A DNA stretch of 64,000 nucleotides, taken from NCBI RefSeq assembly GCF_032054105.1, contig NZ_DAMBTK010000003.1; one strand, written 5' to 3'. Under the pieces are notes generated by a model, which saw only the letters and a list, made by a program, of their open reading frames with translations, did no database searches and was not told the origin of the DNA. The position numbers and the translations under genes were made by a program. The DNA comes from Epilithonimonas sp. Its GTDB lineage: Bacteria > Bacteroidota > Bacteroidia > Flavobacteriales > Weeksellaceae. Positions 27,599-63,860 of the stretch are shown here, piece by piece. The first letter of the stretch is position 1; each line of letters begins with the position of its first letter.

Positions 27599-27607
27599 GA
27601 CTGATCT

Positions 27608-27640: not shown

Positions 27641-27768
27641 ACCTTCATTAAAATAGATTTTAAAGGGGCTTAAATGCGATGTTTCATCTCTGTCATTGTG
27701 GAAAGTTTTTATCTCAATAAAACTAAAAACAATTATAAGTCAGTAGTCTATCAATAAATAAATGTAAA

Positions 27769-29393: not shown

Positions 29394-29395
29394 GT

Positions 29396-40503: not shown

Positions 40504-43500
40504 TTATCGGTTCTTTCCAATACTTCTTTCCGCCACTATAGATTGATTTTTCGTTTTTTCACTTCTAAACAAAACTTCATTTTCCGCCTTTCTTTCTGTC
40601 AAATGATCCACCAAAGAAACTTTTCTCAACCGTTCCTCATTTTCCCTCTGATATTGCAACACCAAAGCCGACTGAACTTCGGGAAGTTTCTCAATCTGCT
40701 CCTCAAATTCGGCAATTTTCTTTTCGGTGAGTTCGTTTTGCAGTTCAATTTCAGAGATATTCACGCCTTTTTTTGCGAGATGGTCGATGGTTTCCTGCAG
40801 TTCCTGTTTTGCTCGATTCACATTGGCTTCGTAATTATAGATATGGCGATTCCAAGTGCTGTCTTCACCTGCGTCTTTCGCCCATTGTTCTACTCTTTTC
40901 AAACTTGAGATGGCGTAGTCCAACTTTTCTTTTACTTTAGTATAATCCTCAAATTTTCGTAGGACAAAAGATTGGTCGGCGAAATATCGGTCTTTTTCAT
41001 TTTGCAGTTTTTTCTTTAAAAGTTCAATTTCGATGTTCGCACGAGTTTCAGGTTTAGTGATGATGGCGGTTTTCAGTTCCTGTGTGTTCACATCGGAAAC
41101 ATCTACCACATTTGCTCCCTTTTTCATCGCTTCAAGATATCTCGCCTGTTTTGCCTGCAATTTTTGAAGCATAAAAACATCGATGCTGTCGTTTGTAAGC
41201 ATATAATTGATGCGCACATTTTCCCATTGGTTTCCCTGTCTCCAAGCGCGACCTTCCACTTGCCGAAGCGAAGTAAAATTGTAGGGTAGGGAAAGCAGAT
41301 ACATATCCGAAGTTTTTTCCTGCAGATTCATTCCTTCCTGAATCGCCTCACTCCCGATAATGACCTTAATTTTCCCCGAATTAAAATCATTCTGAATGTC
41401 AATCCGCTGATTTTTTGTGGTCGCTCCCGCAATAATTCCGACCTCATTGGGTTTGAAACCGACTTCCGAAATCAAGTATTCCTTCAATTTTGGAAATTCT
41501 GCAACCGCCAATTCAGAATAAATGATTTGTCCCGCATTTGGAATATCCTTTTTGTTTTGAGCAATCAAATCCATCGTCAGTTTCAGTTTCGGTGAATTTT
41601 CGATAAATCCTTTTGTGGTAGGGTTTTCATCTTCAAAATGAATGGAAAGGTAGGGCGAAATCGCAATCAATCTCGCATTCAGGATATGCGTCAAAATCGC
41701 TCCCGGTTCCTTCTCGGAAAAGGAATCGTTTAAAAGTTCGTATTGTTCTTTTGTCAAATCGTTCTGCTCAATTTTATATTCTTTGTTGATTCGGTTCGGT
41801 CGCTTTAATTCGGGATTGTCTTCTTCGCCTTTTAAATCAATAAATTCTGACAACAATTGCTGAAAAAGTGAATTGTTTTTAAACCTCCGAACATTGGATT
41901 TGAATTTTACGTCGCCTGTCGCACCGATTTCCATCTCGTTGTCGGCTTCCATAAAGGTTTCAAAGAAATTGTTCACATTGAAATATCCGCTTTCTTCCAA
42001 ACGTTTATTGGCGATGAGCGATAAAATAGAGTAGTATTCCAAAGGTTTATTGGTAAATGGTGTCGCCGAAAGAAGCGAAACATTTCTACCGTTATTTTTC
42101 TCCTGAATGTATTGACACGCCATCCAAGCATTGATTCCCAATCCCGATGTCCGCTGATTTTGACTTCTAAAATCAGAAGAAAATCTTCTGTCCTCAATCC
42201 GCACTTTTCCCACGATGTGATTGGCGTTGTGAACTTCATCGAAAGTGATATGGTCGAACCCAAAATCCTCCCAATCGTAGATTTTTCCACGCCTCATTTT
42301 TCCTTCCACCTCTTTTTCCTTCTGAATTTCAATCTGCGTATCTCTTTCGCTGTTTTTCACGGATTTCAGTTCCGATTCCGTGATGTAGGAAAACTTGGAC
42401 GCAAGTTGCTCCGTCGTTTCCCTCGAAAACCCGATATTGTTGAAACCATCGTAAGTCACCAAAGTAATTTCCCCGTCCTTGTTGTCGAAATTTGACAAAT
42501 CGTAATCCATTCCCAAGTTTCCCAAAATATTCAACTTCGCTTCGGGAATAGATTCAAAAATAGTTTCCACCCATTGCTTCAAGATATTTGCATTGGGAAC
42601 CACGATTAGAGGTCGTTTTGCATTTCCTCTCTGCATCGCTTCGTGTATCGAGATAATTCCTGAAAGCGTTTTCCCGAATCCCACTTCGTGCGCCAAAAGT
42701 CCGACACCTTTCGTGGTCAATCTTCCAACTCCTGCTCGCTGAACTTCGGTCAAGGAAAGCGGTTCACCCTTGAAATTTTTGTTGATTTTTGAAAACAATG
42801 GAAACTGCGAATAATCCGGAACGTGGATATTGTTGAATTTTTTGTTGAATTCCGCCACAAAGCGATTTCGGGTTTCTATGGAAAGTTCCTCTCTCACATA
42901 TTTTCTGAAAAGGTCGTTTGCGGCATCCTTTCTTCGTTCCCGAATCAGCGCATTTCTTTCCTTGTCGCTTCCGGTCACATTTTCATTGTCCACGAAACTG
43001 CGCACTTCCCACGACGACGAACCTGCAAATGCAGAAGCAGGCAAGGAACTCACAAATGTCTTAAAAGTTTCCGCTAAAGAAGCGTCTTCTTTCACGGTTT
43101 CGGTTTGTCTCGTGTTCGGATTCCATTTTTCTTTTTCCACTTTTCCCATAGAAAATTGGTGGACAAACTCGTGGTTTGGACTGATGATGATGTCCTCCAA
43201 ACTTTTGGGTTTTGGGAGAACGTTTTCAAGGAGCGACTTCTGTTTCTGGTATTGGTTTTCCATTCCGCCGACTGCTTTTTTATCTACAAAATCCCGTTCC
43301 AATTGCTCCAATTTCGCGTAGATATTTCCTTCGGCATAATAAAAATCGTGCATCCATCGACCTTCAAAATAGTTGGCAAATTTGCAATGTTTTCCCCTGT
43401 TGTTGAGCGTTCCGTCATATTCCGTATCCTGAAAAGCAGAAATTTGTTCGGGACTGATGTTGGAAGAGTTTTGAAGTGCCGTATCTACAATTTCGTCATT

Positions 43501-46856: not shown

Positions 46857-49628
46857 TTAAATGTTGAAATAGTTTTTAGATTCCTCTTGAAATACTCTGC
46901 TGTTTTGATTTTTTTCAGTACTCTCAACTTCCAAACCCTTCAATGGCTTGTTGGTATTGATGCGGTTCATCTCGTTGTCGTACAGATTGAGATTTTTGTA
47001 CTGCGGATTCAAGACCGCTTTTCCTTCCACGGTTTGGTTGTCGAGTGAAAATTTTACTTTCACGATGTTGCCTTTCTCCAAAGACTTGATGACGTTGTCT
47101 CGGTATTCCGGTTTGTCGAAAATCAGACCTGCCTTATCCACAATTTTCCCTGTATCCACCCCGTAATTTTCGTTGTAGATTTCGAGTTTGTAGTTGCCGT
47201 AATCGTTTTTGTCCTCGTTGAACTTTAGTTTCACAAAGGCGGGAATCATCTCGTCGGTCTTGGTGTTTTTCAGTTCCGTTTTCACGGCTCTGCCTTCAAG
47301 AAGGTTTACGGCTTCTTTTGCGGTAAAGGAATTTTCCTTGCCCACGCCGAAGTTGTGCGTGAATTTTTCACCTTTGTCGTTGGTCAGTTCCGCCTGATAA
47401 GCGTTCAGGAAGATTCCGCCCTTTTCAGATTTGTTGAATTTAAGGGTAAAATCCACCTTGTTTTCGGGCAGGGTTTTGTCGGAAGTCGTCTTGATTTCAA
47501 ACTGCCTTGCCTCGCCTTTGATTCCGTTTTCCAAATCTTTGTGGAGTTTTTCTCCTTCCCCGAAACCTAGGTATTTCATTTGGTCTTTCAGGTACTGCGC
47601 AGTGTCGAATTCTTGTGTGCTCATAATGCTTGTTTTTGAGTTGTTAATAAAATTGTTTTGGTTATCTTGATTTGTTGTTTGTTGTTGGGAAGCAGATTCG
47701 GGAGCGGGATTCAGTCCATTTCTAAAATCATAAATCTGCATCCACTTTTTTTCCTTTTCGGAGAATTCGCGTTCTCCGTTCTTAAAGAACATCTCGGGAG
47801 AAGTGTTTTCCATTTCGGCGATAAAATCTTTATAGGCTTTGGTTTTGGGCGTGATGTACTTGTCGAAAAAGGTCAATTCGTAATGGCTTTGAATATCTTT
47901 CGGAATCTCCTTCTGATGAAAAATGCCATTAAACAATTCGAGTTCTTCGAGGATTTCTTTTACAAAATCTTCTGTCGGATTATGGGAAATGTCGATTTCA
48001 AAGGTTTGGGATTCCTCGTCAAAACCGCCGATTTCCTCATCCATATCGTCTTTGGTAACGCCGATCCAATCATCGTCGTCGCCATATTCTTTACACATAA
48101 TGTCCTCCAAAATATCGTTCGCCAAAAGATATTCTGCTTCCGAGCGATTGACCTTGATATGGAATGCTTCGCCTTGACGCTCCTCGGGAATGTGTTGGAG
48201 AAATTTCTCCTCCCGATTTTTAGTATTTTCAACGACATTTTTTGAGGAATAATGGTTTTCCACCTCGTTCATCAGTTTATTCAGAGAGTATTGCGAAAGC
48301 CTGTCCAACAAGAAGGGCTGTTTTCCTTCGGCGATTCTCACCAAAAGAATCGGGTCTGTATCATATTGCGACATCGTCAAATCCAAATATGCCTTTAGTT
48401 CTTCGGTCGAGTCAAAATCGAAAGGTTTTGGTGCCACGGATTTGGCTTCGTCATTCGCATAAACACCTATTTCCACGGTTATCTTTTCATTCGAGCTGTA
48501 TCGATTTCCTAATTCGCCGACTATGGGTTCCGCATTCAGATTATCCTTGCTGAACTTGTCGACGAGATGGTCATAGACATTGATTTTGGTCTTTTCGTAG
48601 AGGGAATGAAAATTTCCGCTTTCCAATAAAATCGCGTCCAAAGCCGTGAATCCCATCAGTTCGAGTTTTTCGCGGTATTCCTTGTACATCTGCTCGTTCA
48701 CATTGTTTCCGTAGAGGATTACTCCCGTTCCGGCGTGAATGGTCATCAGTTCTGTCAATTTCTCGAATTGCCGATGTTGCGGAAGAATGAACTTCCCCAC
48801 AATGTCGTTCGCATTGTTCAGGATGATGGCTTCCGTCTTGTTGGACAACCCAAATTTTTGGCTCGAAATGTAGGCGGCGGTATCTTCGGGACTGCTTATT
48901 TTAAACGGTTGATAATTGGCGGCAAAAATCTGCTTGTTGAAGGAAAAGGTGCTGACTTTTTCCTGCAGTTGGTTTTGCTCGGAAAGTTCCAACACTCGGT
49001 CGTTTCCCAACTCGCCGTTAAAAACCAAATATTTTCCCGAACGCAAATTGATGACGATGCCGTCTTCCACCTTTATTCCCGTGTGGTCGAAAATGTCGTG
49101 CAATCTTTGCAACATCAGTCGGTCGTGTTTGCTCGAAATCAGTTGTCCGCTCGGATGGTTGTGGACAAGCGTAATGCTTTCGGGCTGCATTTTGAAGACA
49201 TTCCCCGTCAACAACCGCAAATCCACGACCGTGGAAGTAATTCCGCCTGTCGAAAGATGCTGAACGAGGTAACTGTCGTCCTTGAATTTGTAAAGCGCAA
49301 AAGTGTGTTCCACCGCCTCGTCCTCAAGCGCACGGAAAAGCCACGCCACATCGTTCACATCCGAAACTTTCGTACCCGCTCGAAATGAAAGACTTTTATT
49401 TTCCGAAAACTGCCTTTCTACGAGCGCAAAATCATTGGTGTAACCTTGATTGTCCTTTTCCCGTAGGATGGCGGAATTTGGGTAAGCATCATTTCGCCCG
49501 CTGAAAAGTTTGTAAGGTAAAACTTTGCCTTCCGAAGTTTTGAGATATTTCGTCGCCTCGTCCGTTGGAAAGCGAAAATTCGTGTTCGGTCCATATTTGC
49601 TTTGATAATTAAAAAGGTCTATGTCCAT
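46857..49628 (-). CDS. 923-aa conjugative-element protein with a RadC-like JAB/MPN domain
   Basis: JAB motif ITLVHNHPSGQLISSKHD at about aa 152-168. The C-terminal ~250 aa resemble repeat domains common in Bacteroidota conjugative transposons. Confidence 0.7.
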   Translation of the reverse strand: MDIDLFNYQSKYGPNTNFRFPTDEATKYLKTSEGKVLPYKLFSGRNDAYPNSAILREKDNQGYTNDFALVERQFSENKSLSFRAGTKVSDVNDVAWLFRALEDEAVEHTFALYKFKDDSYLVQHLSTGGITSTVVDLRLLTGNVFKMQPESITLVHNHPSGQLISSKHDRLMLQRLHDIFDHTGIKVEDGIVINLRSGKYLVFNGELGNDRVLELSEQNQLQEKVSTFSFNKQIFAANYQPFKISSPEDTAAYISSQKFGLSNKTEAIILNNANDIVGKFILPQHRQFEKLTELMTIHAGTGVILYGNNVNEQMYKEYREKLELMGFTALDAILLESGNFHSLYEKTKINVYDHLVDKFSKDNLNAEPIVGELGNRYSSNEKITVEIGVYANDEAKSVAPKPFDFDSTEELKAYLDLTMSQYDTDPILLVRIAEGKQPFLLDRLSQYSLNKLMNEVENHYSSKNVVENTKNREEKFLQHIPEERQGEAFHIKVNRSEAEYLLANDILEDIMCKEYGDDDDWIGVTKDDMDEEIGGFDEESQTFEIDISHNPTEDFVKEILEELELFNGIFHQKEIPKDIQSHYELTFFDKYITPKTKAYKDFIAEMENTSPEMFFKNGEREFSEKEKKWMQIYDFRNGLNPAPESASQQQTTNQDNQNNFINNSKTSIMSTQEFDTAQYLKDQMKYLGFGEGEKLHKDLENGIKGEARQFEIKTTSDKTLPENKVDFTLKFNKSEKGGIFLNAYQAELTNDKGEKFTHNFGVGKENSFTAKEAVNLLEGRAVKTELKNTKTDEMIPAFVKLKFNEDKNDYGNYKLEIYNENYGVDTGKIVDKAGLIFDKPEYRDNVIKSLEKGNIVKVKFSLDNQTVEGKAVLNPQYKNLNLYDNEMNRINTNKPLKGLEVESTEKNQNSRVFQEESKNYFNI

Positions 49629-49640: not shown

Positions 49641-50375
49641 TTACCTGCGGAATCCTCTGCGTTTTTCCTGTTCCTGTTCGATTTCTTGCTCGTTTTCCTC
49701 GTCCTCTTGCTGTGATTTGGCTTCCCTTACAGAATTCGCGTCCTGATAAAGGTCGGGGTCGTTCACGTCAAGCCGTACTTCGGACTGCTGCTGTTTTTGC
49801 GCCTGCTTCGGGGATTGAGCCACCTCGTTCACGGTATTGATTTCTTTGGACAGGATATTGAGGTTGTTGATGATGTCCTTGGCGATTTCGGGGTACTTGT
49901 CGATTTTATCCTGCAGGAATTCTTTCAGTTTCAGGAGTTCGTCCTTGTAGCGGTTGATTTCCTCGGAATCGTTTCGACCTAAAATAGTCTTGGTCAAAAC
50001 TTCCGCATTAAAAACCATATCATATTCCTCCAAAGATTTTGTGGATTCGTTGTAGAGGAACGCTTTTTTGGAGATATTGAAATCGGGGTTTTGGTCGTTC
50101 AGATTTTTCTCCGAAACATACTGTACCGATTCTTTTTTGGATTGGTCTAGAATTTCGGAAAGGGAATGCTCCATTTGATAGACTTTTACCTCCAATTTGG
50201 AGTTGTTGTCGGTCAGTTGGAAGGTGATTCGGTCTTTCTCGTTGTCGGCGACAAGGATTTTTCCCTGCATAAATTCGATGATGTCGTTGGCGTTCAGTCT
50301 TTTCGAGAACGAATTGTCGGCTTCGATGATGCCGAATTTTTTCAGGTCGTCTGTTGGTAGTGGGTTAGTGTTCAT
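49641..50375 (-). CDS. Acidic conjugative-element protein of unknown function
   Basis: 244 aa with an EQ-rich tail. It lies in the same operon as the JAB protein. Confidence 0.5.
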   Translation of the reverse strand: MNTNPLPTDDLKKFGIIEADNSFSKRLNANDIIEFMQGKILVADNEKDRITFQLTDNNSKLEVKVYQMEHSLSEILDQSKKESVQYVSEKNLNDQNPDFNISKKAFLYNESTKSLEEYDMVFNAEVLTKTILGRNDSEEINRYKDELLKLKEFLQDKIDKYPEIAKDIINNLNILSKEINTVNEVAQSPKQAQKQQQSEVRLDVNDPDLYQDANSVREAKSQQEDEENEQEIEQEQEKRRGFRR

Positions 50376-51192
50376 AATGTTGTGCGATTAATTGTTTTGC
50401 TTGAATGAGTTCGTTCAGAAAATTCAGGGGATTGATGAATTTTCCAAATTCCTTCACGGAAAAATGCAGGTGCGGTCCGGTTGAGTTTCCCGAGTTTCCG
50501 CTCTTGCCGATGACGAATCCCGCCTTTACCACTTCTCCTGCTTTATAATATTTTTCGGAGAGGTGCAGATAGGCGGTCTCGAAACGGTTGTGGTGCAGGA
50601 CTTTGATGTAGTTTCCGCCACCTTTAGTGTCCCATCCCGATTCGGTAATGATGCCGTCCATCACAGCAAAAACATTTTCATATCTAGCCTTGATGTCGAT
50701 GCCGTTGTGGAATTTTTGTCCGCCAAAAATGGGATGGAAGCGGTTTCCAAAAGCCGAACTCAAGTTGAGTGCATTTTTCACGGGCATCATAATCTTGTTC
50801 GGGGAAAGAACATTTTCTTCCTTTGCTTTTAAGGATTTTTGCAATCCCGATTTTTCTATGGAAAGATTTCTTTTAAGGATTTGGATAAGGGAATCTTCCA
50901 CGCGTTTGATGTCTAATTGATGTGGAATAGGCTTTCCCTTTTTTATTTCCAAAATCATCTTTTTCAGGGAATCAAGTTCCTTACGCAAGACTTTCTTTGA
51001 AGAATTCTTCAGCAAAAAATTTCCCTTTTCAGAAACTCTTGTTTCATTGGTTTTAGAATTAGTTTCCTTCCCTGAATTTTCAATAAATTCAGGTTTGTTT
51101 TCTTCCATTTTCTTCACAAAAGTTACAGTGTTGAATTGTGCCTTTAACGAAAATTGAATGAGCACGGTAAAAAGTAGGATGTATCGTTTCAT
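50365..51192 (-). CDS. M23-family metallopeptidase (peptidoglycan hydrolase)
   Basis: Signal peptide, HNGIDI, and GNSGNSTGPHLHFSV. Confidence 0.85.
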   Translation of the reverse strand: MKRYILLFTVLIQFSLKAQFNTVTFVKKMEENKPEFIENSGKETNSKTNETRVSEKGNFLLKNSSKKVLRKELDSLKKMILEIKKGKPIPHQLDIKRVEDSLIQILKRNLSIEKSGLQKSLKAKEENVLSPNKIMMPVKNALNLSSAFGNRFHPIFGGQKFHNGIDIKARYENVFAVMDGIITESGWDTKGGGNYIKVLHHNRFETAYLHLSEKYYKAGEVVKAGFVIGKSGNSGNSTGPHLHFSVKEFGKFINPLNFLNELIQAKQLIAQHYEH

Positions 51193-51197: not shown

Positions 51198-53189
51198 TCA
51201 GTTTAAGATTTTCAGGGCGTCGATGATGAGTTCCACCTCCTTGTTGATTCTTCGGAAATTGGTCATCAGCACTTCCTCTTTTCGGTTTTTTCCCGTTTTG
51301 TCCGTGAAATTGTAGTAGGTCGGCATTTTCACATAGTTCTGTTCCTCGTGTTTAATCTTCTCCATATCGAGGTTGATTTTCCCGCTGATTGCCGAAGATT
51401 TGTATTCCGAGTTGTCGTTTTCCTCGCTTTGGGCAATCATTCCGACCATTTCTCCGGTGCGGAGTGCGGCGATTTTTCCTGCAGGAATCATATTGTCCAT
51501 CTTTTCGTTGATACTCGTGGTGGTTCCCTGTTGCGAGATACTCTGCGAATAGGTTTTCTGCTTTATTTTTCCGAATAGTTTTTCGAGCCATTCCAAGGTG
51601 TTCTTATCCCTTGCAGAACCTGAAAGGATGTTCCCGACGATGGCGGAAATGGTGTCTGCGACTTCTTTTTTGTAAAACTGTCGGAGTTGCGGAATTTCCT
51701 GAAGTCCCAAAAGCACGGCAATCTTGTTGCTTCTTGCGGTTGCCACCACATTGTCGATTTTGTGGATGTAGATGGTTGGGAACTCGTCGGCAATAATTCC
51801 GCCGGGAAGATTTCCCTTGTTGTTAATCAAGGTCAAAGTTCTGTTTAAGACGGAAGAGTAAAGGGCTGAGTTGATGTCCTGTGTTCCGGGATTGGAAGCC
51901 AATATCATTATCGACGGATTTTCGCTGTTGGTAATCTTCAGTTCCACTTCGTCGCCTGAAAACACCCAAAAACTTTCCTTGGTCGCCAATCTTGAGAGGA
52001 AGATTTTCAAGGTTCCGACCTGTCCCTCCAATTGGTCGAATGCCTTGTTGTCATATGCCGTCTTGAAGGGAGAAAGAAGCGAGGACAGTTCCTCGTGAGT
52101 AAAGAGCGTCTCGAATATTTCCTCGTAACTCTTGTTCATAAAAGCCAAAAGATGGGGCAGTGTGGAAAATTTTCCGTTCTCGTAAGTTGCAAAAAAGTAG
52201 ATGCACGAGGATAAAAAATTAATTGCTGATTGCGTAAAAAACTGCTCCGAACCGCCACCTGCACTTGCACCACCTTTTTGCAGTGCTGAAACCATCGCTT
52301 CCGCCATTTCCTGTGCTTCCGCCAAAGTTCGGATGTATTCCTTTTTAAAGGGATTCACTCGTTTCGAGCCTTCCACCTCGTTCAGATTGATGATGTTGAA
52401 TTGATGTTGATATCCTCCATCATTGGATTTCTTCAAAAGATAGTGGTAGTACGCAATCTGTGAAAGGTCGGGAAACTTGAAATCATAGATACACAGCGAG
52501 AAACCTTTGGCGACCATCTGTCGGATTGCGGGATTGATGACGCCGAACGATTTTCCCGAGCCGGGCGTTCCGATGACCATCGTTCCACGAAACGGATTGA
52601 GGTTGATCCATCCCTTGTGCGTCATCTTTTGGTAGCGGAACAAATAGGGCAGGTTCACCGACGTGTCGGTTTCCGCCAATTCTGTGTTTTGAGCAAAACT
52701 TTCCTCCTCCACATTCCATCGGTCTTTCCCCATTTTCTGCTGCATGTATTTCGAGATGCTGTCGGCACCCATCTGTGCAATCATCGCTCCCAAAAGGGAA
52801 AGCAGGGCGTATCCGATTTGGAAGACGTTCATTCCGGGCAGGATGTTTGGGATGGATCTGTCGTCGGTAAGAGGAATGAGGAAGAGTGAGCCGACCATCA
52901 TTCCGACACCGAAAATAATCGGCAGGATGATGGATTTCACGATGTTCAAATCCTGTTTCTTCTTCGCCTTGGTTCCCGCCGCTACGATGGCGATTAAAAT
53001 CAGTGTCGAAATTTTGGCGTTGATGGGCGGGGAGAAAATCCCCATCTTGGCAAATCCCTCCAACAGTTTTGAAAGCACGGGAACATTGGCGTGTAGGAAA
53101 AACAACGTGATGCATTCCATCGCCACGACGGCATAGACCAATTTTTGGAAGAATCCGTAAATCTTGATTTGGTGCTGCTGTTCCTGCAT
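51198..53189 (-). CDS. Type IV secretion coupling protein (TraG/TraD/VirD4 family)
   Basis: N-terminal TM helices, Walker A GTPGSGKS and Walker B-like GGIIADEFP; 663 aa. Confidence 0.85.
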   Translation of the reverse strand: MQEQQHQIKIYGFFQKLVYAVVAMECITLFFLHANVPVLSKLLEGFAKMGIFSPPINAKISTLILIAIVAAGTKAKKKQDLNIVKSIILPIIFGVGMMVGSLFLIPLTDDRSIPNILPGMNVFQIGYALLSLLGAMIAQMGADSISKYMQQKMGKDRWNVEEESFAQNTELAETDTSVNLPYLFRYQKMTHKGWINLNPFRGTMVIGTPGSGKSFGVINPAIRQMVAKGFSLCIYDFKFPDLSQIAYYHYLLKKSNDGGYQHQFNIINLNEVEGSKRVNPFKKEYIRTLAEAQEMAEAMVSALQKGGASAGGGSEQFFTQSAINFLSSCIYFFATYENGKFSTLPHLLAFMNKSYEEIFETLFTHEELSSLLSPFKTAYDNKAFDQLEGQVGTLKIFLSRLATKESFWVFSGDEVELKITNSENPSIMILASNPGTQDINSALYSSVLNRTLTLINNKGNLPGGIIADEFPTIYIHKIDNVVATARSNKIAVLLGLQEIPQLRQFYKKEVADTISAIVGNILSGSARDKNTLEWLEKLFGKIKQKTYSQSISQQGTTTSINEKMDNMIPAGKIAALRTGEMVGMIAQSEENDNSEYKSSAISGKINLDMEKIKHEEQNYVKMPTYYNFTDKTGKNRKEEVLMTNFRRINKEVELIIDALKILN

Positions 53190-53642: not shown

Positions 53643-54512
53643 TTAAAAAGTGTCTGCGTTCAGGATGTCGGAATACTTGATTCCCATCTCAATAGTTCTT
53701 CCCGAAAGTTGTTCCTCCACGAAGCGTATTTTCAGAATCTTGCTGTTCGGATAGGTAAACTTCTTGAAGACATAGATGTTCCGGTAGTTTTTCTTGAAAC
53801 CTTTCTGCGACTGAAATCGGTAAATCGGTTTCATTTCGATGCTTTGGTTGTTGGTTGCCTTGTAGATTTTCTTGTCCTCCACGGAAAACTTGACGTCGTC
53901 AATTTGGTAACTCATATTCGACTTGTTGGCGATATTGATGTCGAGAAAGATGTAGTCGCCAACCACGTACACATTGTTGAGTTGCAGGGAAAGTTTCAGT
54001 TCGTTCACCGTCCTCAAAGGCGTTTTGTAGGTTTTTTCGATGATGTTTTTCGAAAATCGGTGGAGTTCCGTGTTGGAAAAAGCCTGTTTCGGAAATTCCA
54101 AGGGCTGCATATCCTCCGGCTGAATTTGGATGTTGGTCTGCACATTGATTCGGTCGCTCGATCCAAAAAGAGCGCGGTATTGCGCCATAAACGATTGTCC
54201 CACTACGGTTACCACGCCGACTTCCTCGCTCGACTTCATTATTTTTTTGTTGAACTGTTTCGAGGAAATCGAATCTTTCGGAGCGGGATTGATTTTAATT
54301 CTCGCAATATTTTCAGCGGGAAGGTCGCCCACCAAAAAATCCGAGGACAAGTCCACAAACTGAATCGGTTCGGGGGAGATGATGTGCACGTTCACGCCTT
54401 CGCCCATGTCAAGTTCGGGAAGTTGGGTGATGCGGATTTCGGGTGTGGAAGTTTGGGCAAAAACGCTTGCCGAAAATAAAAAGGAGAGGATGGTGTAAAA
54501 AAAGGTCTTCAT
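53643..54512 (-). CDS. traN: Conjugative transposon protein TraN-like
   Basis: Signal peptide MKTFFYTILSFLFSASVFAQ from the ATG at 54512. Position after traM and size (~290 aa) fit TraN. Confidence 0.7.
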   Translation of the reverse strand: MKTFFYTILSFLFSASVFAQTSTPEIRITQLPELDMGEGVNVHIISPEPIQFVDLSSDFLVGDLPAENIARIKINPAPKDSISSKQFNKKIMKSSEEVGVVTVVGQSFMAQYRALFGSSDRINVQTNIQIQPEDMQPLEFPKQAFSNTELHRFSKNIIEKTYKTPLRTVNELKLSLQLNNVYVVGDYIFLDINIANKSNMSYQIDDVKFSVEDKKIYKATNNQSIEMKPIYRFQSQKGFKKNYRNIYVFKKFTYPNSKILKIRFVEEQLSGRTIEMGIKYSDILNADTF

Positions 54513-54516
54513 AATG

Positions 54517-55731
54517 TTAAGGTTGATTGGTATTTTGTTTAAGGTCTTTTTCATTAATTAAAAAGATGTAGGAATTGTACTTGAGTTTGGCTTTGTTGGT
54601 TCTAATCAGGTTTGCCGCGGTTTGTGAGGCGGAACGGAACGCTCCCGACAAAAGACTCGTGTAAAATCCCTTGCCTTCGGAATCGATGTTCGTTCCCTGC
54701 ACGGAATTGCTTCCAAGCTCTCGCAACATTTCACGGAAGGTGCTGTTCGGAACATAAAGTCCCTGCATTCCGTCGGTATCGTAAACGGTTAAATTGATGG
54801 GTAGGATTTCGCCACTGCGCATTACGGAAACCACGTTCAGGTTCACCCGCTGCAAAGAAAATCCCGAAATCTGACCATAAAGCAGGGTTCCCTTCGGCAG
54901 TTTTTGTCCGCCTGCGAAGACATCCTCCAACAATCGCAACCGTATCCTGCTGCCTAGAAATCCGGTCAGGTTTTCATCTATGACGGCTTTCACAAAGTTG
55001 CCCTCCTTTTCACGGTAGATGGAATTGAAGCCGTTGTGGATATTGGATTTTGCGACATAATAGGTGGAATTGAGAAAGGCGTCCATCTTTTCCTTATTCT
55101 TCTTCAGCAGTTCCTGCGCCTTTAATTGCGCCTGAAATTCGGGGTCTCTTGATTTTTCCAAGGAATCGAGCACGAGCATTTGCTGACGCATCATCTTTAC
55201 CGGATCCAACGCTTTTGAATCCTCAGCAGATGGAGAGGTGTTCTTTGCTAAATTCTGCGCATTATTTGAACTTCCGCTCGAACCTTCTTGGTTCAACATT
55301 CGGATGATGTCCTTGGAACGCTGAAAGTCTCCGTCGTCGGAAGTTTTCGGTGTGTAGTAAGAGTTTTGTCCCTGATTTCCCTTTTCCGAAATCTGACTTT
55401 TTCTCGACTCGTTCAGGGAATCGATATAGCGTTTCTGTCGGTATTCCAAATTGTCGCTGAATTGATTCAGGCTGTCATTTTCCTGTTGCAGTCCGTCCAA
55501 CATCGTCCTGCCGTCGGTTTTCGAGAATAATTTGTCGTAGGCGTCGTTTTTGGAGAGGATAGAGTCCTGCGTTTCGCCGAGCGATACCGAAAGTTCCTGC
55601 TGTGGCGGTTTCTTCGCATCACCACTTCCCATAAACTTGCTTCCTTGAAATCCTAAAAACAGGATAAAGGGCAGTGCGATGAGCGGAAGGATGTATTTCT
55701 GCTGTTTAAGGTTTATTTTTTTAAAGTCCAT
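54517..55731 (-). CDS. traM: Conjugative transposon protein TraM-like
   Basis: N-terminal TM segment (YILPLIALPFILFLGF), a Q/S-rich linker and a conserved C-terminal domain. Gene order is K-L-M-N. Confidence 0.75.
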   Translation of the reverse strand: MDFKKINLKQQKYILPLIALPFILFLGFQGSKFMGSGDAKKPPQQELSVSLGETQDSILSKNDAYDKLFSKTDGRTMLDGLQQENDSLNQFSDNLEYRQKRYIDSLNESRKSQISEKGNQGQNSYYTPKTSDDGDFQRSKDIIRMLNQEGSSGSSNNAQNLAKNTSPSAEDSKALDPVKMMRQQMLVLDSLEKSRDPEFQAQLKAQELLKKNKEKMDAFLNSTYYVAKSNIHNGFNSIYREKEGNFVKAVIDENLTGFLGSRIRLRLLEDVFAGGQKLPKGTLLYGQISGFSLQRVNLNVVSVMRSGEILPINLTVYDTDGMQGLYVPNSTFREMLRELGSNSVQGTNIDSEGKGFYTSLLSGAFRSASQTAANLIRTNKAKLKYNSYIFLINEKDLKQNTNQP

Positions 55732-56702: not shown

Positions 56703-57929
56703 TTATCGTAAAGCCTTGATTGATTTTCCCATTTCACCCGCAGTCTTGGCGGCAGATAATGCGATTGCCTTTCCTCCCGTTGCCGCAGAAGCCGCAGCGG
56801 TTTTACCCATGCTCATCACTTTGGCTGCCGCACTCTTTCCTTTGGTCATGATTCCCGCACCTCCCGCAGAAACGATGGAGTCTGCAATGGTCGGGGTCAT
56901 CAGTACGCCGATTCCCGTTACGATGTACGCGACGCAGGGGAAAAGTACAGTGTGAATCATCCCGTTATTAGAAATGTAGGCAGCGAGCATATTGAGGTCG
57001 GTCACGGTTCCGTTGTTCAAAAGCAGGTCGTAGCGTTCTATTTCAAGTTGATAGCCCGAGATAATCAGTTGCTGACCGATGTTGATAATGGTGTAGGAAA
57101 CGAAGGTGTAGAGATTGATGTTGATGAATTTCGCCACCCAATTTTGAAAGGAACTCTCAAATCCCGGAATCAGCGAAAGACCGACGGCGACAGGACCGAG
57201 CACAATCAACACATAACTCCAAATTTTTTGTATAAAGAAGATAAAGTAGGTACAGACCCGCAAAATCGTCAGCGAAACCGCCTCCAACACTTCCGAAATA
57301 AGTTTCTGAAATTGGAAATCCATCCTAATCATCCACTCCTGAATCGGCGTGAAAAGTTTGCTCATTCCCTCGATGATTCGGTCACCGAATCCTTTGTCCT
57401 CGTTGATTTGAAGTTCCTTCTGTTTGGCTTCCTCCTCGGCTTTCTGCTTAATCAGGAACTCCAACAATTGGGTCTGCTTTTCAAATCTTTTGACGCGGAT
57501 GTCGTTTGCCTGTTTTTCAATCGATAAAAAAATGTCCTTGGAAGGTTGCGCCAATTTCTGCAACGGATATTGAATCATTTGGTAGAAACTCACCCAATGC
57601 AGGAGAATCATCCCGATGATGATGGGTCTAATCATCGGCGTCACTTCCCAAGGTCTCGCGCCTTCCTGCATTTGGAATCCGAGGTATCCGAGATACATCA
57701 ACGCTCCCAAACCGCCGATGGTTCTTCCGAGCATACTCGCTGCAATCGCGTTGCTTTGGATGTCGGTGTCCAATTGAGTGAAGACCTCCATATACCATCG
57801 TTCAAATGCGCCGTCACCTTTCAGAAACTGCAATAAACTGTTGACGCTGTTGTTGGTCTGCGCAAATCCCATTACGGGAAGCAGGAGCGCCATAAGGCAA
57901 AGCACGTTTAAAATTGTTTTGCTATTCAT
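56703..57929 (-). CDS. traJ: Conjugative transposon protein TraJ-like (VirB6-analogous polytopic membrane protein)
   Basis: Multiple TM helices and an Ala/Gly-rich C-terminal tail, lying upstream of traK. Confidence 0.7.
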   Translation of the reverse strand: MNSKTILNVLCLMALLLPVMGFAQTNNSVNSLLQFLKGDGAFERWYMEVFTQLDTDIQSNAIAASMLGRTIGGLGALMYLGYLGFQMQEGARPWEVTPMIRPIIIGMILLHWVSFYQMIQYPLQKLAQPSKDIFLSIEKQANDIRVKRFEKQTQLLEFLIKQKAEEEAKQKELQINEDKGFGDRIIEGMSKLFTPIQEWMIRMDFQFQKLISEVLEAVSLTILRVCTYFIFFIQKIWSYVLIVLGPVAVGLSLIPGFESSFQNWVAKFININLYTFVSYTIINIGQQLIISGYQLEIERYDLLLNNGTVTDLNMLAAYISNNGMIHTVLFPCVAYIVTGIGVLMTPTIADSIVSAGGAGIMTKGKSAAAKVMSMGKTAAASAATGGKAIALSAAKTAGEMGKSIKALR

Positions 57930-57930
57930 C

Positions 57931-58770
57931 TTAAAATTGGTGTTTGTAGTGGTTCATCACTTCCTGTGCGATTTCCTTGTCGGTTTTGAAATTTTTCGTT
58001 CCGAATAGGTTTGTAGTATTTTTTAGGTCTTGAAGGATCTTGTGATAATCCATATACAGTCCGCCTTTTAGGTCGTGGCTTCGGATTTCGGACGAAAATT
58101 TTCGCCATCCGATCAAAGTTTCGTGGTACATCAGGAAGCGTTTCCCTCTCGGCATATCCACCGTTCTTGAAATATTGTACTTGTCTTTAAGCAAATCCAA
58201 TTTTTCTTTCAGGAGACTAATTCCACCCGTAGAAAGCAAAGTCTGATAGACTTCGGGTTTTTGAAATCCCCACTCCAAATAATTTTGAGGGTTGTCGGGA
58301 AATTCACGTAGCGGTTTCAGCATCCTGTTGTAGTAGAGCAACCAAAGCGGGTCTGCGCTGACTGTGGCTGAAGTCCAATGCGCAAAATCTTGAACGCTTC
58401 TTTTGTGGATGGTGTCGGTTTCCATCTTGATGCGTTCCGTCTCCTTTCTTTGCAGTTCGAGTTCGCCGAATCGTTGGGTTTCCAATCCTGTCGGTTTTAG
58501 CGGTCGGATATCGGGACCGTCTTTATAATCACGATTTCTAGACGGTGCCCACATTCCCCAAACCGTGGCGTAGGCAAAATTCGTCTGAATCCCTAGCAAA
58601 TATTTTGGATAGGGTCTCCAATCACCCCATCCCTCGAAGACCATCCTTTTCTGTTGTGCCACGATGGAAGGGTCGTTCAGTCGTTTGACTGTAAATTGTG
58701 CCTTCAGGTTTTCAGAGAAAATCAGTGCAATAAGGGCAATGAAGAAGGCGAAGTTTGTTTTAGTATTCAT
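57931..58770 (-). CDS. Secreted conjugation-operon protein of unknown function
   Basis: Signal peptide FAFFIALIALIFSENLKAQ; 279 aa. Confidence 0.5.
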   Translation of the reverse strand: MNTKTNFAFFIALIALIFSENLKAQFTVKRLNDPSIVAQQKRMVFEGWGDWRPYPKYLLGIQTNFAYATVWGMWAPSRNRDYKDGPDIRPLKPTGLETQRFGELELQRKETERIKMETDTIHKRSVQDFAHWTSATVSADPLWLLYYNRMLKPLREFPDNPQNYLEWGFQKPEVYQTLLSTGGISLLKEKLDLLKDKYNISRTVDMPRGKRFLMYHETLIGWRKFSSEIRSHDLKGGLYMDYHKILQDLKNTTNLFGTKNFKTDKEIAQEVMNHYKHQF

Positions 58771-58779
58771 AATGATTCA

Positions 58780-59451
58780 TTAAAAAAGGTTTCTGTATTT
58801 AGTGATGATGTCTTGAACCAAAATCCTGTCGAGATTGATATAGTCTTGCAGGACGGGAATCTGATAGAGGTAGGGTCTGTTTTTGGCGGTCTTCAGGATG
58901 ATATTGATGTACAAAATCCATCCGTCGATGGCTCTTGCGCGTGCCAACATTTTCTCGATAAGCAGGTCGCGGTCGTAGGCGTTCATCAGAAAATCCTTGT
59001 TCTCGTTCATAATGTCGGAAACCATTTCCTGCTTCAGCAGGATGGATTCCTGAATGATTTGGTTGTAGTATTTGGTCAGCAGAATGGCGTATTCGGAATT
59101 TTGTGCGCTGAGCTGCATCATTTCCTGAGAATGGGTGAGGATGTCGCCCAAATAATTATAGAAATACACGAGCTGTTTCCCGTTTTTGATGGCGGAATTG
59201 ATGTTGGCAAGTTTGTCGTAGATAAACTCGTGTATGGCGACCACCTGAATCATTTTTTTGTTCGCCTCCTCGTAGAGTTTTCTCTGCTTTTCATAGGAAT
59301 CGAGATAGGCCTGATTGCTCGCCAAACGGACACCCTGATTTTTGGTGAGCTGCGCTAATAGTTTGTCGTTGATGACGATGAAGCTTGTGCTTTGTGCATG
59401 AAACAAACAGAACCCCGAAAGAAGCAATGCCGTCAAAAGAATTTTTTTCAT
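58780..59451 (-). CDS. Secreted conjugation-operon protein, tandem paralogue 3
   Basis: Signal peptide. The C-terminus DYINLDRILVQDIITKYRNLF matches the two upstream paralogues. Confidence 0.55.
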   Translation of the reverse strand: MKKILLTALLLSGFCLFHAQSTSFIVINDKLLAQLTKNQGVRLASNQAYLDSYEKQRKLYEEANKKMIQVVAIHEFIYDKLANINSAIKNGKQLVYFYNYLGDILTHSQEMMQLSAQNSEYAILLTKYYNQIIQESILLKQEMVSDIMNENKDFLMNAYDRDLLIEKMLARARAIDGWILYINIILKTAKNRPYLYQIPVLQDYINLDRILVQDIITKYRNLF

Positions 59452-59453
59452 AT

Positions 59454-60140
59454 TTAAAAAGTGTTTATTCCGTTAATGATGCTCTGAACAACCTGTCGGT
59501 CTCGGTTGACATAGTATTGCAACAAAGCCTTCTTGTATTCGATTTTTCTTCGCAGTTCCCGAATCAGGAAAAGGGTATAGTAGGATTCGCTTTCTAGCCG
59601 GTTCACTTCCTCAAGGGCATAATCCAACAAAACTTTCCGTTCGGCTTTTTCCATTTGGTTGATGGCGCCGTAGGAAACCACGATGCCTGCCAAAAGTCTT
59701 ACCACCATCTGCAGGTCGTCTGCAAACTGAATCTGTCCCAGCAATGCTACGATGAGCGCATAAGGAGCGGTTTGCAGTTCCTCGATAATCAAAAGTTCGT
59801 TGTTTCGGATTCTTGCCGCTTCCTGAGTGATTGCGTAACCCGTGGGAATGGACTGCATCGCAAAATCAACGAAACGGAGCCGTTCCTGAATCTTCACGGT
59901 CGTTTCCCGAAGTTTTGTCCACTGCTTCTTGTTTTGGTTTTCGGTAGCGAGGTTCAGCGCCTGCTTGTTCTTCATCTCCTTTTGACGACCGTTTTCCTCC
60001 ATCGTATGGCGGATTTCCAAATTCATCATCGGAAAGGAGACATTTTCCTGCTGCCACGACGGCGTGGAACCGCCACTGCTAGAAGTCAGAAGCGAATGTG
60101 CCGCAATCAGCACCGCCGAAAGATAGAATTTGGCTTTCAT
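59454..60140 (-). CDS. Secreted conjugation-operon protein, tandem paralogue 2
   Basis: Signal peptide; C-terminus YYVNRDRQVVQSIINGINTF. Confidence 0.55.
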   Translation of the reverse strand: MKAKFYLSAVLIAAHSLLTSSSGGSTPSWQQENVSFPMMNLEIRHTMEENGRQKEMKNKQALNLATENQNKKQWTKLRETTVKIQERLRFVDFAMQSIPTGYAITQEAARIRNNELLIIEELQTAPYALIVALLGQIQFADDLQMVVRLLAGIVVSYGAINQMEKAERKVLLDYALEEVNRLESESYYTLFLIRELRRKIEYKKALLQYYVNRDRQVVQSIINGINTF

Positions 60141-60796
60141 CAGAAATTGTGCTTGTATTTAATCATGATATTTTCCACGATGGTCTTGTCGGTGTTGATG
60201 TAGCCCTGAAAAGGATTGATGGCTTTTAGAAAACCGAGGCGTTTGGCGCGTTCGATGTTCATCATGATGGTCAGGAGCCAAATCTTCAATGTTTTCACCT
60301 TTTCAGAGATGCTGAATAAAAGGCGGTAACGGTCTCCCGCAGTGGCGAGATTAAGTTCCCCCGACTTCAGCAATTCCGAAACATCGGTACTCATCGCAAG
60401 GACGCTCTCATAAGTTTCCTTGGTGGCTTTTACCCCGAAAATGGAGTATTCGGGCGCATCGCTCACCAATGTTGAAATCTGCGAGGAATAGGTGGCGCAA
60501 TCCTGTAAGTCGGAATAGATTTCCTTTACCTGAATACCGTTTTGCAGCGTCCCCGAAACTTCGCGAAGCCCTTTCAGAATCTTGTTCTGAATTTCGTTGG
60601 CAACGACCATTTGTGCACCCACCCAAGCTTGAGCCTGCTGCAGTTTGTTCTGTTGTTCGATTGTTTTTTGCTGTTGTGATTTTAAATTTTCTGAATAAAG
60701 AATCAGCGCAGCGGTCGTGGTCGGGTCGATGTAGGTATTTTGGGCGGAAAGGAATCCGACTCCAAAAAAGGCGGTCAAAATCTTAAACTTTTTCAT
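60140..60796 (-). CDS. Secreted conjugation-operon protein, tandem paralogue 1
   Basis: Signal peptide; C-terminus GYINTDKTIVENIMIKYKHNF. Confidence 0.55.
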   Translation of the reverse strand: MKKFKILTAFFGVGFLSAQNTYIDPTTTAALILYSENLKSQQQKTIEQQNKLQQAQAWVGAQMVVANEIQNKILKGLREVSGTLQNGIQVKEIYSDLQDCATYSSQISTLVSDAPEYSIFGVKATKETYESVLAMSTDVSELLKSGELNLATAGDRYRLLFSISEKVKTLKIWLLTIMMNIERAKRLGFLKAINPFQGYINTDKTIVENIMIKYKHNF

Positions 60797-63700
60797 GATG
60801 CAAATCGTTTTGTTGAATTATTTCTTCAAAAGTCAGTTCGGAATCCTCCATCATTTCGGTGATTTTCTTGAACACGTTCTGACCTTTGAACTGTGATTTC
60901 ATTTTTTGGTAAAAGGAGGTAGCCTTTTTGTCCAAAGGTTTTTTGTAGAGGTTCACGAGGGAAACCACATTTCCCAAATCGTTATTGAAAGCCTTCACAT
61001 CCTCTACAAACTTTTTGAGCGCCACGTCATAACTTCCGCTTTCCTTGGCGTAATATTCTATGGCGGACTTTTCGGGTTTCTCGGTGGTGTAGGTGAGATA
61101 TTGTTCAAGGGAAACCTCGTTTCCGTAGACTTCGCCTCTCGAACCCCGCTTCAGATAAAATTCCTTGAATCGGCTTCTTCCGAATTTGTTGTTCAGGTTG
61201 TTGATGGTAAAAATTTTGTTCTGTTCCACCTTGTTCAGCGAGAGTAGCGATGCGATTCGGTCAAAATTGTCCTTGAACTTGGTTTGGTCCAACAAAATGA
61301 AGGTGTCTGAATTATTGATAATGGAATCCTTTACCACTGTATTTCCGATGATGTCGTCCAATTCCTGCGTCACCACTACGGCTTCGCCCCAAAACTTTCT
61401 CACGGTTTTATAGAGATAAAGAATGTAGCCTCCCATCAGTTTTGAGACAATCGCCTTCCATGCTTCCTCGATAATCAGGGCTTTTCTTCGGTCTTTTCGC
61501 AACCTCATTTTCTGAATAAAGGTGTCCATGATGATGAGTGTCACGATGGGGAAGAGTTTCGGATTGTCCTTCACATTGTCGATTTCAAACACGATGAAAG
61601 GTTCGTCGAATAGAGTGTTATCGGCACTTTCGTTCAAAGTTGTTCCGTATCTGCCGCCTTTGTAGAAATCCTTCAGAACAAACAAGAAAGTTCGCAGGTT
61701 GAATTCCTTTTCACCAATCTTGTGCTTTTTATTGTTCAAAAAGACAGGAAGAAATTTCTCGCAGTATTCATAAAACCCATTAAAAGAAAGTTCTTTCACA
61801 GCGAGTTTTTCCTCAAGACCGACAATTTTTTTGATGAGCGTCTTTCGGTAGGCGTCATTCCATTCCTGCGAGGATTCGGGACGCTTTATAAGGTCTCTCG
61901 TTTTGGTCAGAACCAATTGCGACTCGTTGTAGGTTTTTCGTCTTTCCTCGTCAGTCAAAGTTTCATACGCTTCAAAAATTCGGTAGAACATCTCCCTGTC
62001 GTAATCGGGGTTTCCGATGTTGGAATCGGGATGGTAATAACGGATGAGTTTTCTTCCCGTTTCCTTAATTTCATTGGTCGAAGCATCAAATGGAAGTCCC
62101 AACAAATCGTAAAAAGTCTTGGCATCCTGAAAATCCTTTTCAAACTCCGACTCGATGTCCGCCTCGTCGATATTGTATTTTTTGAGGTAGAGCATCAGTT
62201 CGTCGGAATCCTTGTGTTCAAACCAATTGGTTCCCGCATTAAAATATTGGTGGTAATAAGACATCAGCACATTGTCCAAGATGGATTTTTGGGTATTGCT
62301 CATTGTTGCGTCCGCTCCCTGCCAAATCAAAAAAATGAGGTTGGTCAGAAACTCGATTTTCTCGATGTTGAATTCCTCCTTGTTCATCAGGAAAGGATTC
62401 ATCGTAATAGGTTTTTCCTCGGTGTACTGAATGTATCTTCCTCCTTTGTAACTGCACGTTCCGGAGTAGGAATCTCCTGTGTCCACGATAATCACGTCGT
62501 AATTGTAGGTGAGATACTGCTCCACAATATTGTTCATCAGGAAAGATTTCCCGCTTCCCGAAGGTCCCAAAACAAACTTGTTCCGATTGTTGATTCGTCC
62601 CGTCTTCATCGGTAAATCAGCGGGATCCACGCGAAGCGGAACACCCTGTCTGTCGGTAAATCTCAAATAAAAATTCGAATTTTCACTCACGGGGTAACTT
62701 TCTTTAAAAAAAAAACATAACGCAGCCTCGCTCGTCGTGGTAAATAAATCGTAGTCTTTCAGTTCGACCGCATTTCCGGGAAGGCAACATCGGAAGAGTT
62801 CCAATTGGTTAAAGGCGTTCTTGGAAATGTTGATGCCCTTGGTGAACAGTTTGCTCTCAATCAGCGACTGTGTTTCCTCCATTCTGTCGAGCGAGTCGGC
62901 GGAATAGACGATGGAGAAATGCGCGTCCACAATCAGTTGACCATCAACCGTCACATTGTGCAGGAGTTCGTCGATTTCGGCAGCGACAATCGCATTCGAC
63001 GGTGCGCTGTTTGCAACGCCTTCGTGCTTTTTCTTCTTCTTTTCCAAATCGCGCTGTCGTTGGGTTTGGATGGGAATCGAGATAATTTGGTTGTAGATGA
63101 TGGTGTTGTAGTCCTCCAACTCGTTGATGAAGGAGAAATTATCCACCGCCGTATCAGAAGAGGCGTTGTTTCCGCCCAAAAGCGAGTAGGGTTCAATTTC
63201 GGAGGGAAGTTCGATGCGTTCCACATCCACATAGGAAATGGTTTTCACAAACTGTTTTCCAATGCGCAGAAACTCGTTATTGGAGTAGATATTGTCGAAG
63301 ACTTGATTCTTAACGAAATTCATCGAGAGACTTCCACCGACATAATATTCAAAATCTTTCTCCCGTAAAAATTTCGGTTCGCAGTGGTATTGGGAGAGAA
63401 GCATAAAAATCTTCTGACAACGGTCGCGCAAGTCTTTGTAGTTTTTTTCCGAGAAGGAATACGAGGTCTTTTTTTTCTGTTGGTCGAGGATGTCGGTAAA
63501 GAGTAAAATAGTGTCAATACTCTTAAAGATTCTTCCCTCGAAATGTTCGGAATATTTTTGCTGCAGGAACTGATTGGACGGTTCTGCCGAATACTGCCTT
63601 TTGGAAAAAATGTCAAGTTTTTGGAGTAAATGTCCCTCTCCCAAAGTCGCCACGATTTGGTTCAAAAGCGTGTGGTATTGCAGGTATAGGTCGGGGTCGG

Positions 63701-63860
63701 CGGAATATTGCTCCACCATATTTTTGATTTTGATTCCTATGACGGGATTTCCGAACTTTCCGACCATCACGTCAAAATTCCAATCGTGTTTGCTGCCGTG
63801 GTCATAGCCGATGAACGGGATGTCCATTTCAATTTTTTTCTTTTTCATTGTTTTGCTCAT
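60783..63860 (-). CDS. traG: TraG-like conjugative transposon ATPase (VirB4 family) carrying an internal J-domain
   Basis: Walker A LGPSGSGKSF and Walker B ALIIEEAWK. Between them lies TFYDLLGLPFDASTNEIKETGRKLIRYYHPDSN...FYRIFEAYETLTDEERRKTYN. An alternative start at 63827 (MDIPFIGYD) lies just after the upstream gene's TGA. Confidence 0.85.
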   Translation of the reverse strand: MSKTMKKKKIEMDIPFIGYDHGSKHDWNFDVMVGKFGNPVIGIKIKNMVEQYSADPDLYLQYHTLLNQIVATLGEGHLLQKLDIFSKRQYSAEPSNQFLQQKYSEHFEGRIFKSIDTILLFTDILDQQKKKTSYSFSEKNYKDLRDRCQKIFMLLSQYHCEPKFLREKDFEYYVGGSLSMNFVKNQVFDNIYSNNEFLRIGKQFVKTISYVDVERIELPSEIEPYSLLGGNNASSDTAVDNFSFINELEDYNTIIYNQIISIPIQTQRQRDLEKKKKKHEGVANSAPSNAIVAAEIDELLHNVTVDGQLIVDAHFSIVYSADSLDRMEETQSLIESKLFTKGINISKNAFNQLELFRCCLPGNAVELKDYDLFTTTSEAALCFFFKESYPVSENSNFYLRFTDRQGVPLRVDPADLPMKTGRINNRNKFVLGPSGSGKSFLMNNIVEQYLTYNYDVIIVDTGDSYSGTCSYKGGRYIQYTEEKPITMNPFLMNKEEFNIEKIEFLTNLIFLIWQGADATMSNTQKSILDNVLMSYYHQYFNAGTNWFEHKDSDELMLYLKKYNIDEADIESEFEKDFQDAKTFYDLLGLPFDASTNEIKETGRKLIRYYHPDSNIGNPDYDREMFYRIFEAYETLTDEERRKTYNESQLVLTKTRDLIKRPESSQEWNDAYRKTLIKKIVGLEEKLAVKELSFNGFYEYCEKFLPVFLNNKKHKIGEKEFNLRTFLFVLKDFYKGGRYGTTLNESADNTLFDEPFIVFEIDNVKDNPKLFPIVTLIIMDTFIQKMRLRKDRRKALIIEEAWKAIVSKLMGGYILYLYKTVRKFWGEAVVVTQELDDIIGNTVVKDSIINNSDTFILLDQTKFKDNFDRIASLLSLNKVEQNKIFTINNLNNKFGRSRFKEFYLKRGSRGEVYGNEVSLEQYLTYTTEKPEKSAIEYYAKESGSYDVALKKFVEDVKAFNNDLGNVVSLVNLYKKPLDKKATSFYQKMKSQFKGQNVFKKITEMMEDSELTFEEIIQQNDLHHEKV

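Follow-up and report, generated by a model that had tools for sequence, protein, structure and literature searches.

The 64,000-nucleotide stretch of Epilithonimonas sp. DNA analyzed here (contig NZ_DAMBTK010000003.1; hereafter the window) contains most of an integrative and conjugative element (ICE), whose traG gene encodes a conjugation ATPase with a complete J-domain embedded in its sequence. The gene (60783..63860, end coordinate including the stop codon) lies on the minus strand, as do all of its features described below, and was defined by its open reading frame (ORF), by profile matches and by an AlphaFold2 model. Its product of 1025 amino acids (aa) is a TraG-family, VirB4-type conjugative-transposon ATPase that scored 467.5 bits on TIGR03783 (curated cutoff 261.55) and 428.7 bits on PF19044 (cutoff 25.8). 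The Walker A motif GPSGSGKS (aa 432-439; 62544..62567) and the Walker B region ALIIEE (aa 794-799, with LIIEE at 795-799; 61464..61481) were both located in the sequence. Residues G435, G437, K438 and S439 of the former were invariant in 123 aligned TraG proteins, and E798, E799, A800 and W801 in and next to the latter were invariant in the alignment of full-length hits. Plus-strand ORFs that overlap traG, such as 61722-62615 (297 aa), are shadow ORFs of this strongly supported minus-strand gene.

The AlphaFold2 model of the whole protein, built on a 123-sequence alignment, had a mean predicted local distance difference test score (pLDDT) of 88.5 and a predicted template modeling score (pTM) of 0.80. 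Its best Foldseek matches in the PDB were TrwK/VirB4 of R388 (8rtd_O, E 8.5e-27) and VirB4 of Thermoanaerobacter (TpsVirB4, 4ag5, E 2.3e-11). These proteins and TrwK in 7o41 were the closest structures to the whole model, with target-normalized template modeling (TM) scores of about 0.6-0.7, although sequence identity was only 13-16% and neither has a J-domain or a similar insert between the aligned blocks. The model shows the two-domain fold of VirB4. The traG product belongs to a conjugative type IV secretion system (T4SS) of Bacteroidota, of the mating-pair formation B (MPF-B), or CTnDOT, class, and is its VirB4-type ATPase. The enzymatic role of TraG, that is, ATP hydrolysis and a part in transfer, is predicted.

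The TIGR03783 TraG model has 829 positions, and the length of most full-length representatives falls at about 790-870 aa, in line with the estimate in the initial annotation that this TraG is about 200 aa longer than is typical. A 150-aa insertion (aa 541-690; 61791..62240) and a tail of about 70 aa at the C terminus make up the surplus. The insertion lies between the conserved anchors YYHQYF and LSFNGFYEY, whose general forms are YYxxYF (aa 535-540 of the query) and LSFNxFYE (aa 691-698). Full-length hits from a search of 1.84 billion cluster representatives were aligned and their inter-anchor linkers compared. The median linker among 106 full-length representatives was 6 aa (10th percentile 3.5, 90th percentile 69) vs. 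150 aa in the query, so that, compared with other TraG/VirB4 proteins, the segment has been inserted, as had been proposed. In the AlphaFold2 model, the insert leaves the protein between helix 522-541 and helix 693-708, in an all-helical region that lies between the strands of Walker A and Walker B, and profile alignment to 4ag5 and TrwK placed the insertion point in the segment that separates two aligned ATPase blocks. The C-terminal tail (aa 956-1025; 60786..60995) was modeled as helices over aa 962-1024. It is missing in the shortest TraG proteins and is less conserved than the core, with a mean column identity of 0.73.

Within the insertion, aa 581-646 (61923..62120) comprise the J-domain. 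Pfam DnaJ (PF00226) matched aa 583-645 of TraG over profile positions 2-63 of 63 with 61.2 bits (gathering cutoff 27.8) and an E value of 1e-16, and the excised segment alone scored 66.2 bits on the same profile. The J-domain peptide, TFYDLLGLPFDASTNEIKETGRKLIRYYHPDSNIGNPDYDREMFYRIFEAYETLTDEERRKTYN, is located at aa 582-645 of TraG. The HPD tripeptide (aa 610-612; 62025..62033) can be read directly from the codons CAT CCC GAT and lies between predicted helix II (595-608) and helix III (622-636); helices I and IV span aa 583-587 and 638-655. The initial annotation had described a complete J-domain with an intact HPD between the two Walker motifs, and each part of that description holds at the profile level and in the sequence. 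The J-domain boundaries that it gave, 61923-62120, translate exactly to aa 581-646, and its broader interval of 61761-62228, aa 545-700 in the protein, essentially coincides with the insert.

Searches of the PDB agreed with the profile result. When TraG was used as a phmmer query against the PDB, J-domains ranked at the top (DNAJB9, 2ctr, E 7.5e-11), and VirB4 structures matched the C-terminal ATPase part only. A separate AlphaFold2 model of the isolated insert gave pLDDT values of 83-91 over the J region and showed the four-helix J-fold. The top 50 Foldseek matches of this model in the PDB were all J-domains, with target-normalized TM scores up to 0.83; the best structural matches had TM scores of about 0.8 and root-mean-square deviations (rmsd) of 1.2-2.1 Å over roughly 63-66 columns. 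DnaK-bound E. coli DnaJ (5nro_B) shared the fold with an rmsd of 1.8 Å and about 40% identity over 63 columns. The residues expected to contact Hsp70 are in place, with K599, R603, K604 and R607 in helix II, and with N614 and F625, conserved at 0.95-1.0. We take these positions to correspond to the DnaK-contact residues R22, K26, R27, N37 and F47 of E. coli DnaJ.

The J-domain is carried on two helical arms. The N-terminal arm of the insertion (aa 541-580; 62121..62240) was modeled with helices at 546-549, 552-560 and 566-578, and the C-terminal part (aa 647-690; 61791..61922) comprises the end of helix IV, a flexible loop (656-663) and a helical arm (664-685). The pLDDT falls to 57 at aa 651-660, and low-confidence loops are present on both sides of the J-domain, a pattern that fits a flexibly tethered J-domain in the predicted structure. 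The HPD face is presumably exposed in the TraG hexamer. In sister lineages the insertion site is occupied by charged helical inserts of 55-147 aa that are unrelated and contain no J-domain. Judged from the alignments, this TraG clade therefore has an insertion hot spot here. A Sphingobacteriales TraG subgroup (P0395, P0405, P0408 from Pedobacter antarcticus, and P0409) has an acidic, J-less, 114-aa helical insert at this site. The arrangement first noted is thus refined to a J-domain nested in a helical-hairpin insertion at an insertion hot spot, with a few lineages that have no HPD or no J-domain. It is a clean case of nested domain insertion in a P-loop ATPase.

TraG is not a full-length DnaJ in another guise. 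The bacterial DnaJ model TIGR02349 was matched only at positions 2-65 of 354 (51.7 bits vs. a cutoff of 377.2), and the TopJ and DjlA models matched TraG over the J-domain only. No Pfam hit to DnaJ_C or DnaJ_CXXCXGXG was obtained in TraG, and the glycine/phenylalanine-rich (G/F) region, zinc finger (class A) and C-terminal client-binding domain that distinguish DnaJ and CbpA (class A/B Hsp40 proteins) are absent. Since DnaJ-family models match the J portion only and none of these three regions is present, TraG is, by its domain content, a class C J-protein and not a DnaJ orthologue.

Class C (type III) proteins such as Sec63, Pam18/Tim14, DjlA, auxilin and Mycoplasma TopJ have a J-domain fused to a protein that fixes the site of Hsp70 action, and Sec63 and Pam18 place it on a protein-translocation channel. 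TraG resembles them in that its J-domain is tied to a machine and is accompanied by none of the G/F region, zinc finger and client-binding domain. It differs in two respects: its J-domain is an internal one, nested within a P-loop ATPase domain, and it lies on the cis side, in the donor cytoplasm, of a system that secretes DNA and protein. Polyomavirus large T antigen combines an HPD-containing J-domain with a hexameric, DNA-handling P-loop ATPase and recruits host Hsp70. The likeness to TraG is a J-domain fused to the hexameric ATPase of a mobile element; however, the J-domain of large T antigen is N-terminal, its ATPase is a superfamily 3 helicase and the system is eukaryotic, whereas the J-domain of TraG is nested and its ATPase is of the VirB4/HerA-FtsK type.

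The J-domain in TraG is genuine and selectively maintained. The HPD was unchanged in all 193 unique homologous sequences, as were R603, N614, Y620, A631, Y632, R641 and Y644, and K599, K604 and F625 had column identities of at least 0.95. Across 80 loci, HPD was encoded by 13 synonymous codon combinations with no amino-acid change, and this codon variation without residue change is direct evidence for purifying selection on the tripeptide. Pairwise dN/dS was about 0.06 in the J-domain, between the values of the ATPase core (0.02-0.03) and those of the arms and tail (0.11-0.15); all are indicative only as dS was saturated at 1.0-1.75.

More than 300 related sequences with a J-bearing TraG, independently assembled, were detected in NCBI, JGI, ENA and Logan data. 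PF00226 and PF19044 occurred together in 120 of the 120 best database hits (74-99% identity), among which the closest named match to the TraG of the window was from Epilithonimonas vandammei (99%). A genome scan with one genome per species detected 212 relatives. The 80 that were fetched for analysis were all Weeksellaceae (Chryseobacterium, Epilithonimonas, Kaistella, Cloacibacterium, Bergeyella, Halpernia, Elizabethkingia and Moheibacter), and the J-domain with HPD was present in 79 of the 79 fetched loci with a recoverable traG ORF. A search seeded with a 42%-identical J-bearing relative detected the J-domain in 106 of 120 hits, including Capnocytophaga leadbetteri, C. stomatis, Sphingobacterium siyangense and Elizabethkingia anophelis. 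Complete plasmids of Chryseobacterium sp. JJR-5R and Sphingobacterium faecium (pWB8) also carry a J-bearing TraG with the HPD present. The architecture thus extends from Weeksellaceae to Capnocytophaga and Sphingobacterium and spans at least two Bacteroidota classes, both ICEs and plasmids, and sequences down to about 40% identity. PLSDB/MOB-suite classifies pWB8 (locus L083, NZ_CP123862.1) as non-mobilizable despite its relaxase, coupling protein and full MPF-B tra operon; the typing scheme probably has a blind spot where Bacteroidota systems are concerned.

The same distribution bears on the concern that the J-domain segment is a chimera created by assembly or sequencing, or resembles a J-domain by chance. 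We regard this explanation as having a negligible probability and rejected it: the architecture is conserved in hundreds of independent genomes and metagenomes and in two plasmids, the J-bearing sequences include complete plasmids and more than 300 independent assemblies, and the profile score lies 33 bits above the cutoff.

The genes downstream of traG in the same operon are those of a Bacteroidota conjugation system. Pfam analysis assigned TraJ/VirB6-like (56703-57929), TraM (54517-55731), TraN/DUF4138 (53643-54554) and a type IV coupling protein (T4CP; 51198-53189), all on the minus strand. The gene order was uniform in the inspected loci (L081-L084): TraE(DUF4134), TraF(DUF4133), TraG, four proteins of about 220 aa, TraJ, TraK, one further gene, TraM, TraN and T4CP. 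TraE and TraF are upstream of traG in these loci; in the window itself the two genes are out of view, because the ICE continues past its right edge. TraG of the window is like CTnDOT TraG and other TIGR03783 members in its above-cutoff family score, its Walker motifs, its VirB4 fold and its TraJ/TraM/TraN/T4CP neighborhood, but it differs by the 150-aa J-domain insertion where about 6 aa are typical and by the C-terminal tail of about 70 aa. The four consecutive proteins directly downstream of traG (57931-60796, minus strand; about 220-280 aa) begin with signal-peptide-like sequences and gave no Pfam hit. Proteins one and three of the block are paralogous (29% identity, E 9e-17), and the four-gene block is kept in L081, L082, L083 and L084.

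The left end of the ICE and its attachment site are probably marked by the junction of a tRNA-Asp(GTC) gene (7897-7971, plus strand) and, immediately to its right, a gene for an IntDOT-like tyrosine integrase with Arm-DNA-bind_5, SAM_5 and Phage_integrase domains (8222-9460, plus strand). The genes left of the tRNA are chromosomal-looking (aminotransferase, HAD, SDR and UbiA). Two very large proteins are encoded on the minus strand between the integrase and the tra operon: an 1878-aa fusion of Toprim, Eco57I-like methyltransferase and SNF2 helicase domains (40504-46140) and a 923-aa protein with a RadC/JAB domain (46857-49628). Both could be transferred substrates. An M23 peptidase gene (50365-51192) follows that of the coupling protein. 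Other genes include a SusC/SusD pair (11887-16470) and a cargo cluster (20081-32462) with a radical-SAM enzyme (21323-22678, plus strand) and two C39-peptidase ABC exporters (22665-24875 and 30255-32462, plus strand), which suggests a modified-peptide or bacteriocin locus.

J-domains with an HPD bind ATP-bound Hsp70 and trigger ATP hydrolysis, whereupon Hsp70 closes on a nearby polypeptide, and J-only (class C) proteins localize this reaction. By analogy with these proteins, we propose, with a probability of roughly 0.7, that TraG would locally recruit and activate the DnaK of the host where the secretion ATPase faces the cytoplasm. Each TraG protomer would present a tethered J-domain to the cytoplasm, where it would dock ATP-bound host DnaK and trigger ATP hydrolysis, and DnaK would then clamp a polypeptide beside the secretion ATPase. 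The candidate clients ranked first are proteins that enter the channel, such as the DNA-attached relaxase or large ICE-encoded proteins. Ranked second are TraG itself or its partners, for which DnaK might act in the assembly, disassembly or activation of the ATPase ring. Substrate handling was ranked first because T4SS substrates need unfolding, the enzyme responsible being an open question (PMC5826034), because VirB11 is seldom present outside MPF-T and has no homologue among the MPF-B profiles (PMC4027160), and because the ICE encodes very large candidate transfer proteins. An extension of this idea, which we put forward only tentatively, is that DnaK might be a working component of the T4SS, fired by the J-domain of VirB4, that unfolds or holds the relaxase and large substrates before they enter the channel. 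DnaK would then be a borrowed, extra ATPase of a T4SS class without a detected VirB11 homologue.

Several observations weigh against DnaK recruitment by TraG. Most TraG/VirB4 proteins, including those of the CTnDOT-like super-clade, are without any insert. The J-domain would be on the donor cytoplasmic (cis) side of the system, and a pulling motor of the Sec63/Pam18 type is therefore excluded. DnaK or GrpE genes were not found among the larger ORFs of the window that were scanned (most ORFs of at least 150 aa), so that the partner would have to be the chromosomal DnaK. In addition, a few relatives have lost the motif or the domain. P0406 (947 aa, 63% identical to the query; locus L084, 10001-12844, JGI sample 3300007129) is a natural, precise deletion in which about 11 aa replace the J-domain and both arms are retained, and its tra operon looks intact. 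P0122 (locus L082, 860-3763) and P0123 have J-like segments of normal length that score only 20-21 bits; the HPD is lost, its site reading FDG or being deleted. This T4SS can apparently exist without a functional J-domain.

As P0406 keeps both arms and yet is without exactly the J-domain, this domain can be separated from the helical arms, at whose tip it sits as a module. The rare relatives that have lost the HPD or the whole J-domain, with an intact-looking tra operon in the case of P0406, indicate that the J-domain, though beneficial, is not structurally indispensable for the T4SS. Crude neighbor-joining trees, built with the insert masked and without support values, placed P0406, P0122 and P0123 inside the J-bearing clade and short-linker forms scattered among deeper J-bearing groups. 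This pattern suggests one ancient gain of the J-domain followed by several losses.

The retention of a recognizable J-like segment of fold length without an HPD in P0122 and P0123 is what would be expected if the J-fold were mainly a structural or docking module for a T4SS partner or the coupling protein, with Hsp70 activation irrelevant or vestigial. J-like domains without HPD do exist elsewhere, for example in Pam16/Tim16. We consider a docking module improbable, however: both HPD-less cases are singleton metagenome clusters, whereas 193 unique sequences all have the HPD, although its codons come in 13 synonymous variants. The near-invariant basic residues of helix II, together with N614 and F625, are the signature of an Hsp70-directed surface and not of a generic scaffold.

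If the J-domain does act through DnaK, the client could be TraG. The J-domain might act in cis on TraG folding, on dimer-hexamer conversion or on the dismantling and recycling of the inner-membrane ATPase complex, as an assembly or regulation device parallel to the remodeling of plasmid Rep proteins by DnaJ/DnaK or to auxilin and clathrin. The J-domain is covalently present in every protomer, making TraG or its neighbors the nearest possible client; the clade also has the extra C-terminal tail, and R388 TrwK reportedly has an autoinhibitory C-terminal helix. The unrelated helical inserts at the same site in sister lineages suggest a regulatory or peripheral surface. On the other hand, many insert-less TraG proteins assemble without such help, and the present data fit substrate handling equally well. 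We hold an in-cis role to be possible but doubtful.

A J-domain could also serve to sense or manipulate host proteostasis, coupling transfer to the level of free DnaK or perturbing the stress response in the manner of phage T4 Rki. Free-standing J-proteins that target the DnaK of the host are indeed encoded by mobile elements, T4 Rki being an example, and many plasmid-borne J-domain proteins turned up in our plasmid search. A regulator of this kind, however, needs no embedding in a structural ATPase at a fixed site across the divergence of the clade (to about 40% identity), and no regulatory partner was evident in the operon. We judge such a role very unlikely and favor recruitment of DnaK to the secretion ATPase.

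The initial annotation was aware of no description of such a coupling of Hsp70 to type IV secretion. No mention of a J-domain in TraG/VirB4 was found in the accessible parts of the full-text literature searched, of the Elizabethkingia ICE papers, of a 2025 T4SS review or of a large J-protein census (main text without the supplementary tables), and in this respect the claim stood. The Elizabethkingia ICE papers use this protein itself as a VirB4 marker. The claim needs qualification in that automated annotation already names the J-domain in some members, which databases label as DnaJ domain-containing protein, J domain-containing protein or Chaperone protein DnaJ. The architecture is thus visible in databases and apparently undescribed in the literature.

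We know of no general chaperone that has so far been placed at a T4SS ATPase. A conserved, HPD-containing J-domain in VirB4 is a concrete and genetically tractable handle on a possible part of Hsp70 in conjugation, and P0406 is a ready-made design for a J-deletion mutant. TraG would also add to the bacterial class C J-proteins a member whose site of action is obvious. Among the carriers are ICEs of Elizabethkingia anophelis, an emerging multidrug-resistant pathogen, as well as Chryseobacterium, oral Capnocytophaga and plasmids of Sphingobacterium. If true, a dependence of transfer on DnaK would matter for how resistance genes spread in these groups.

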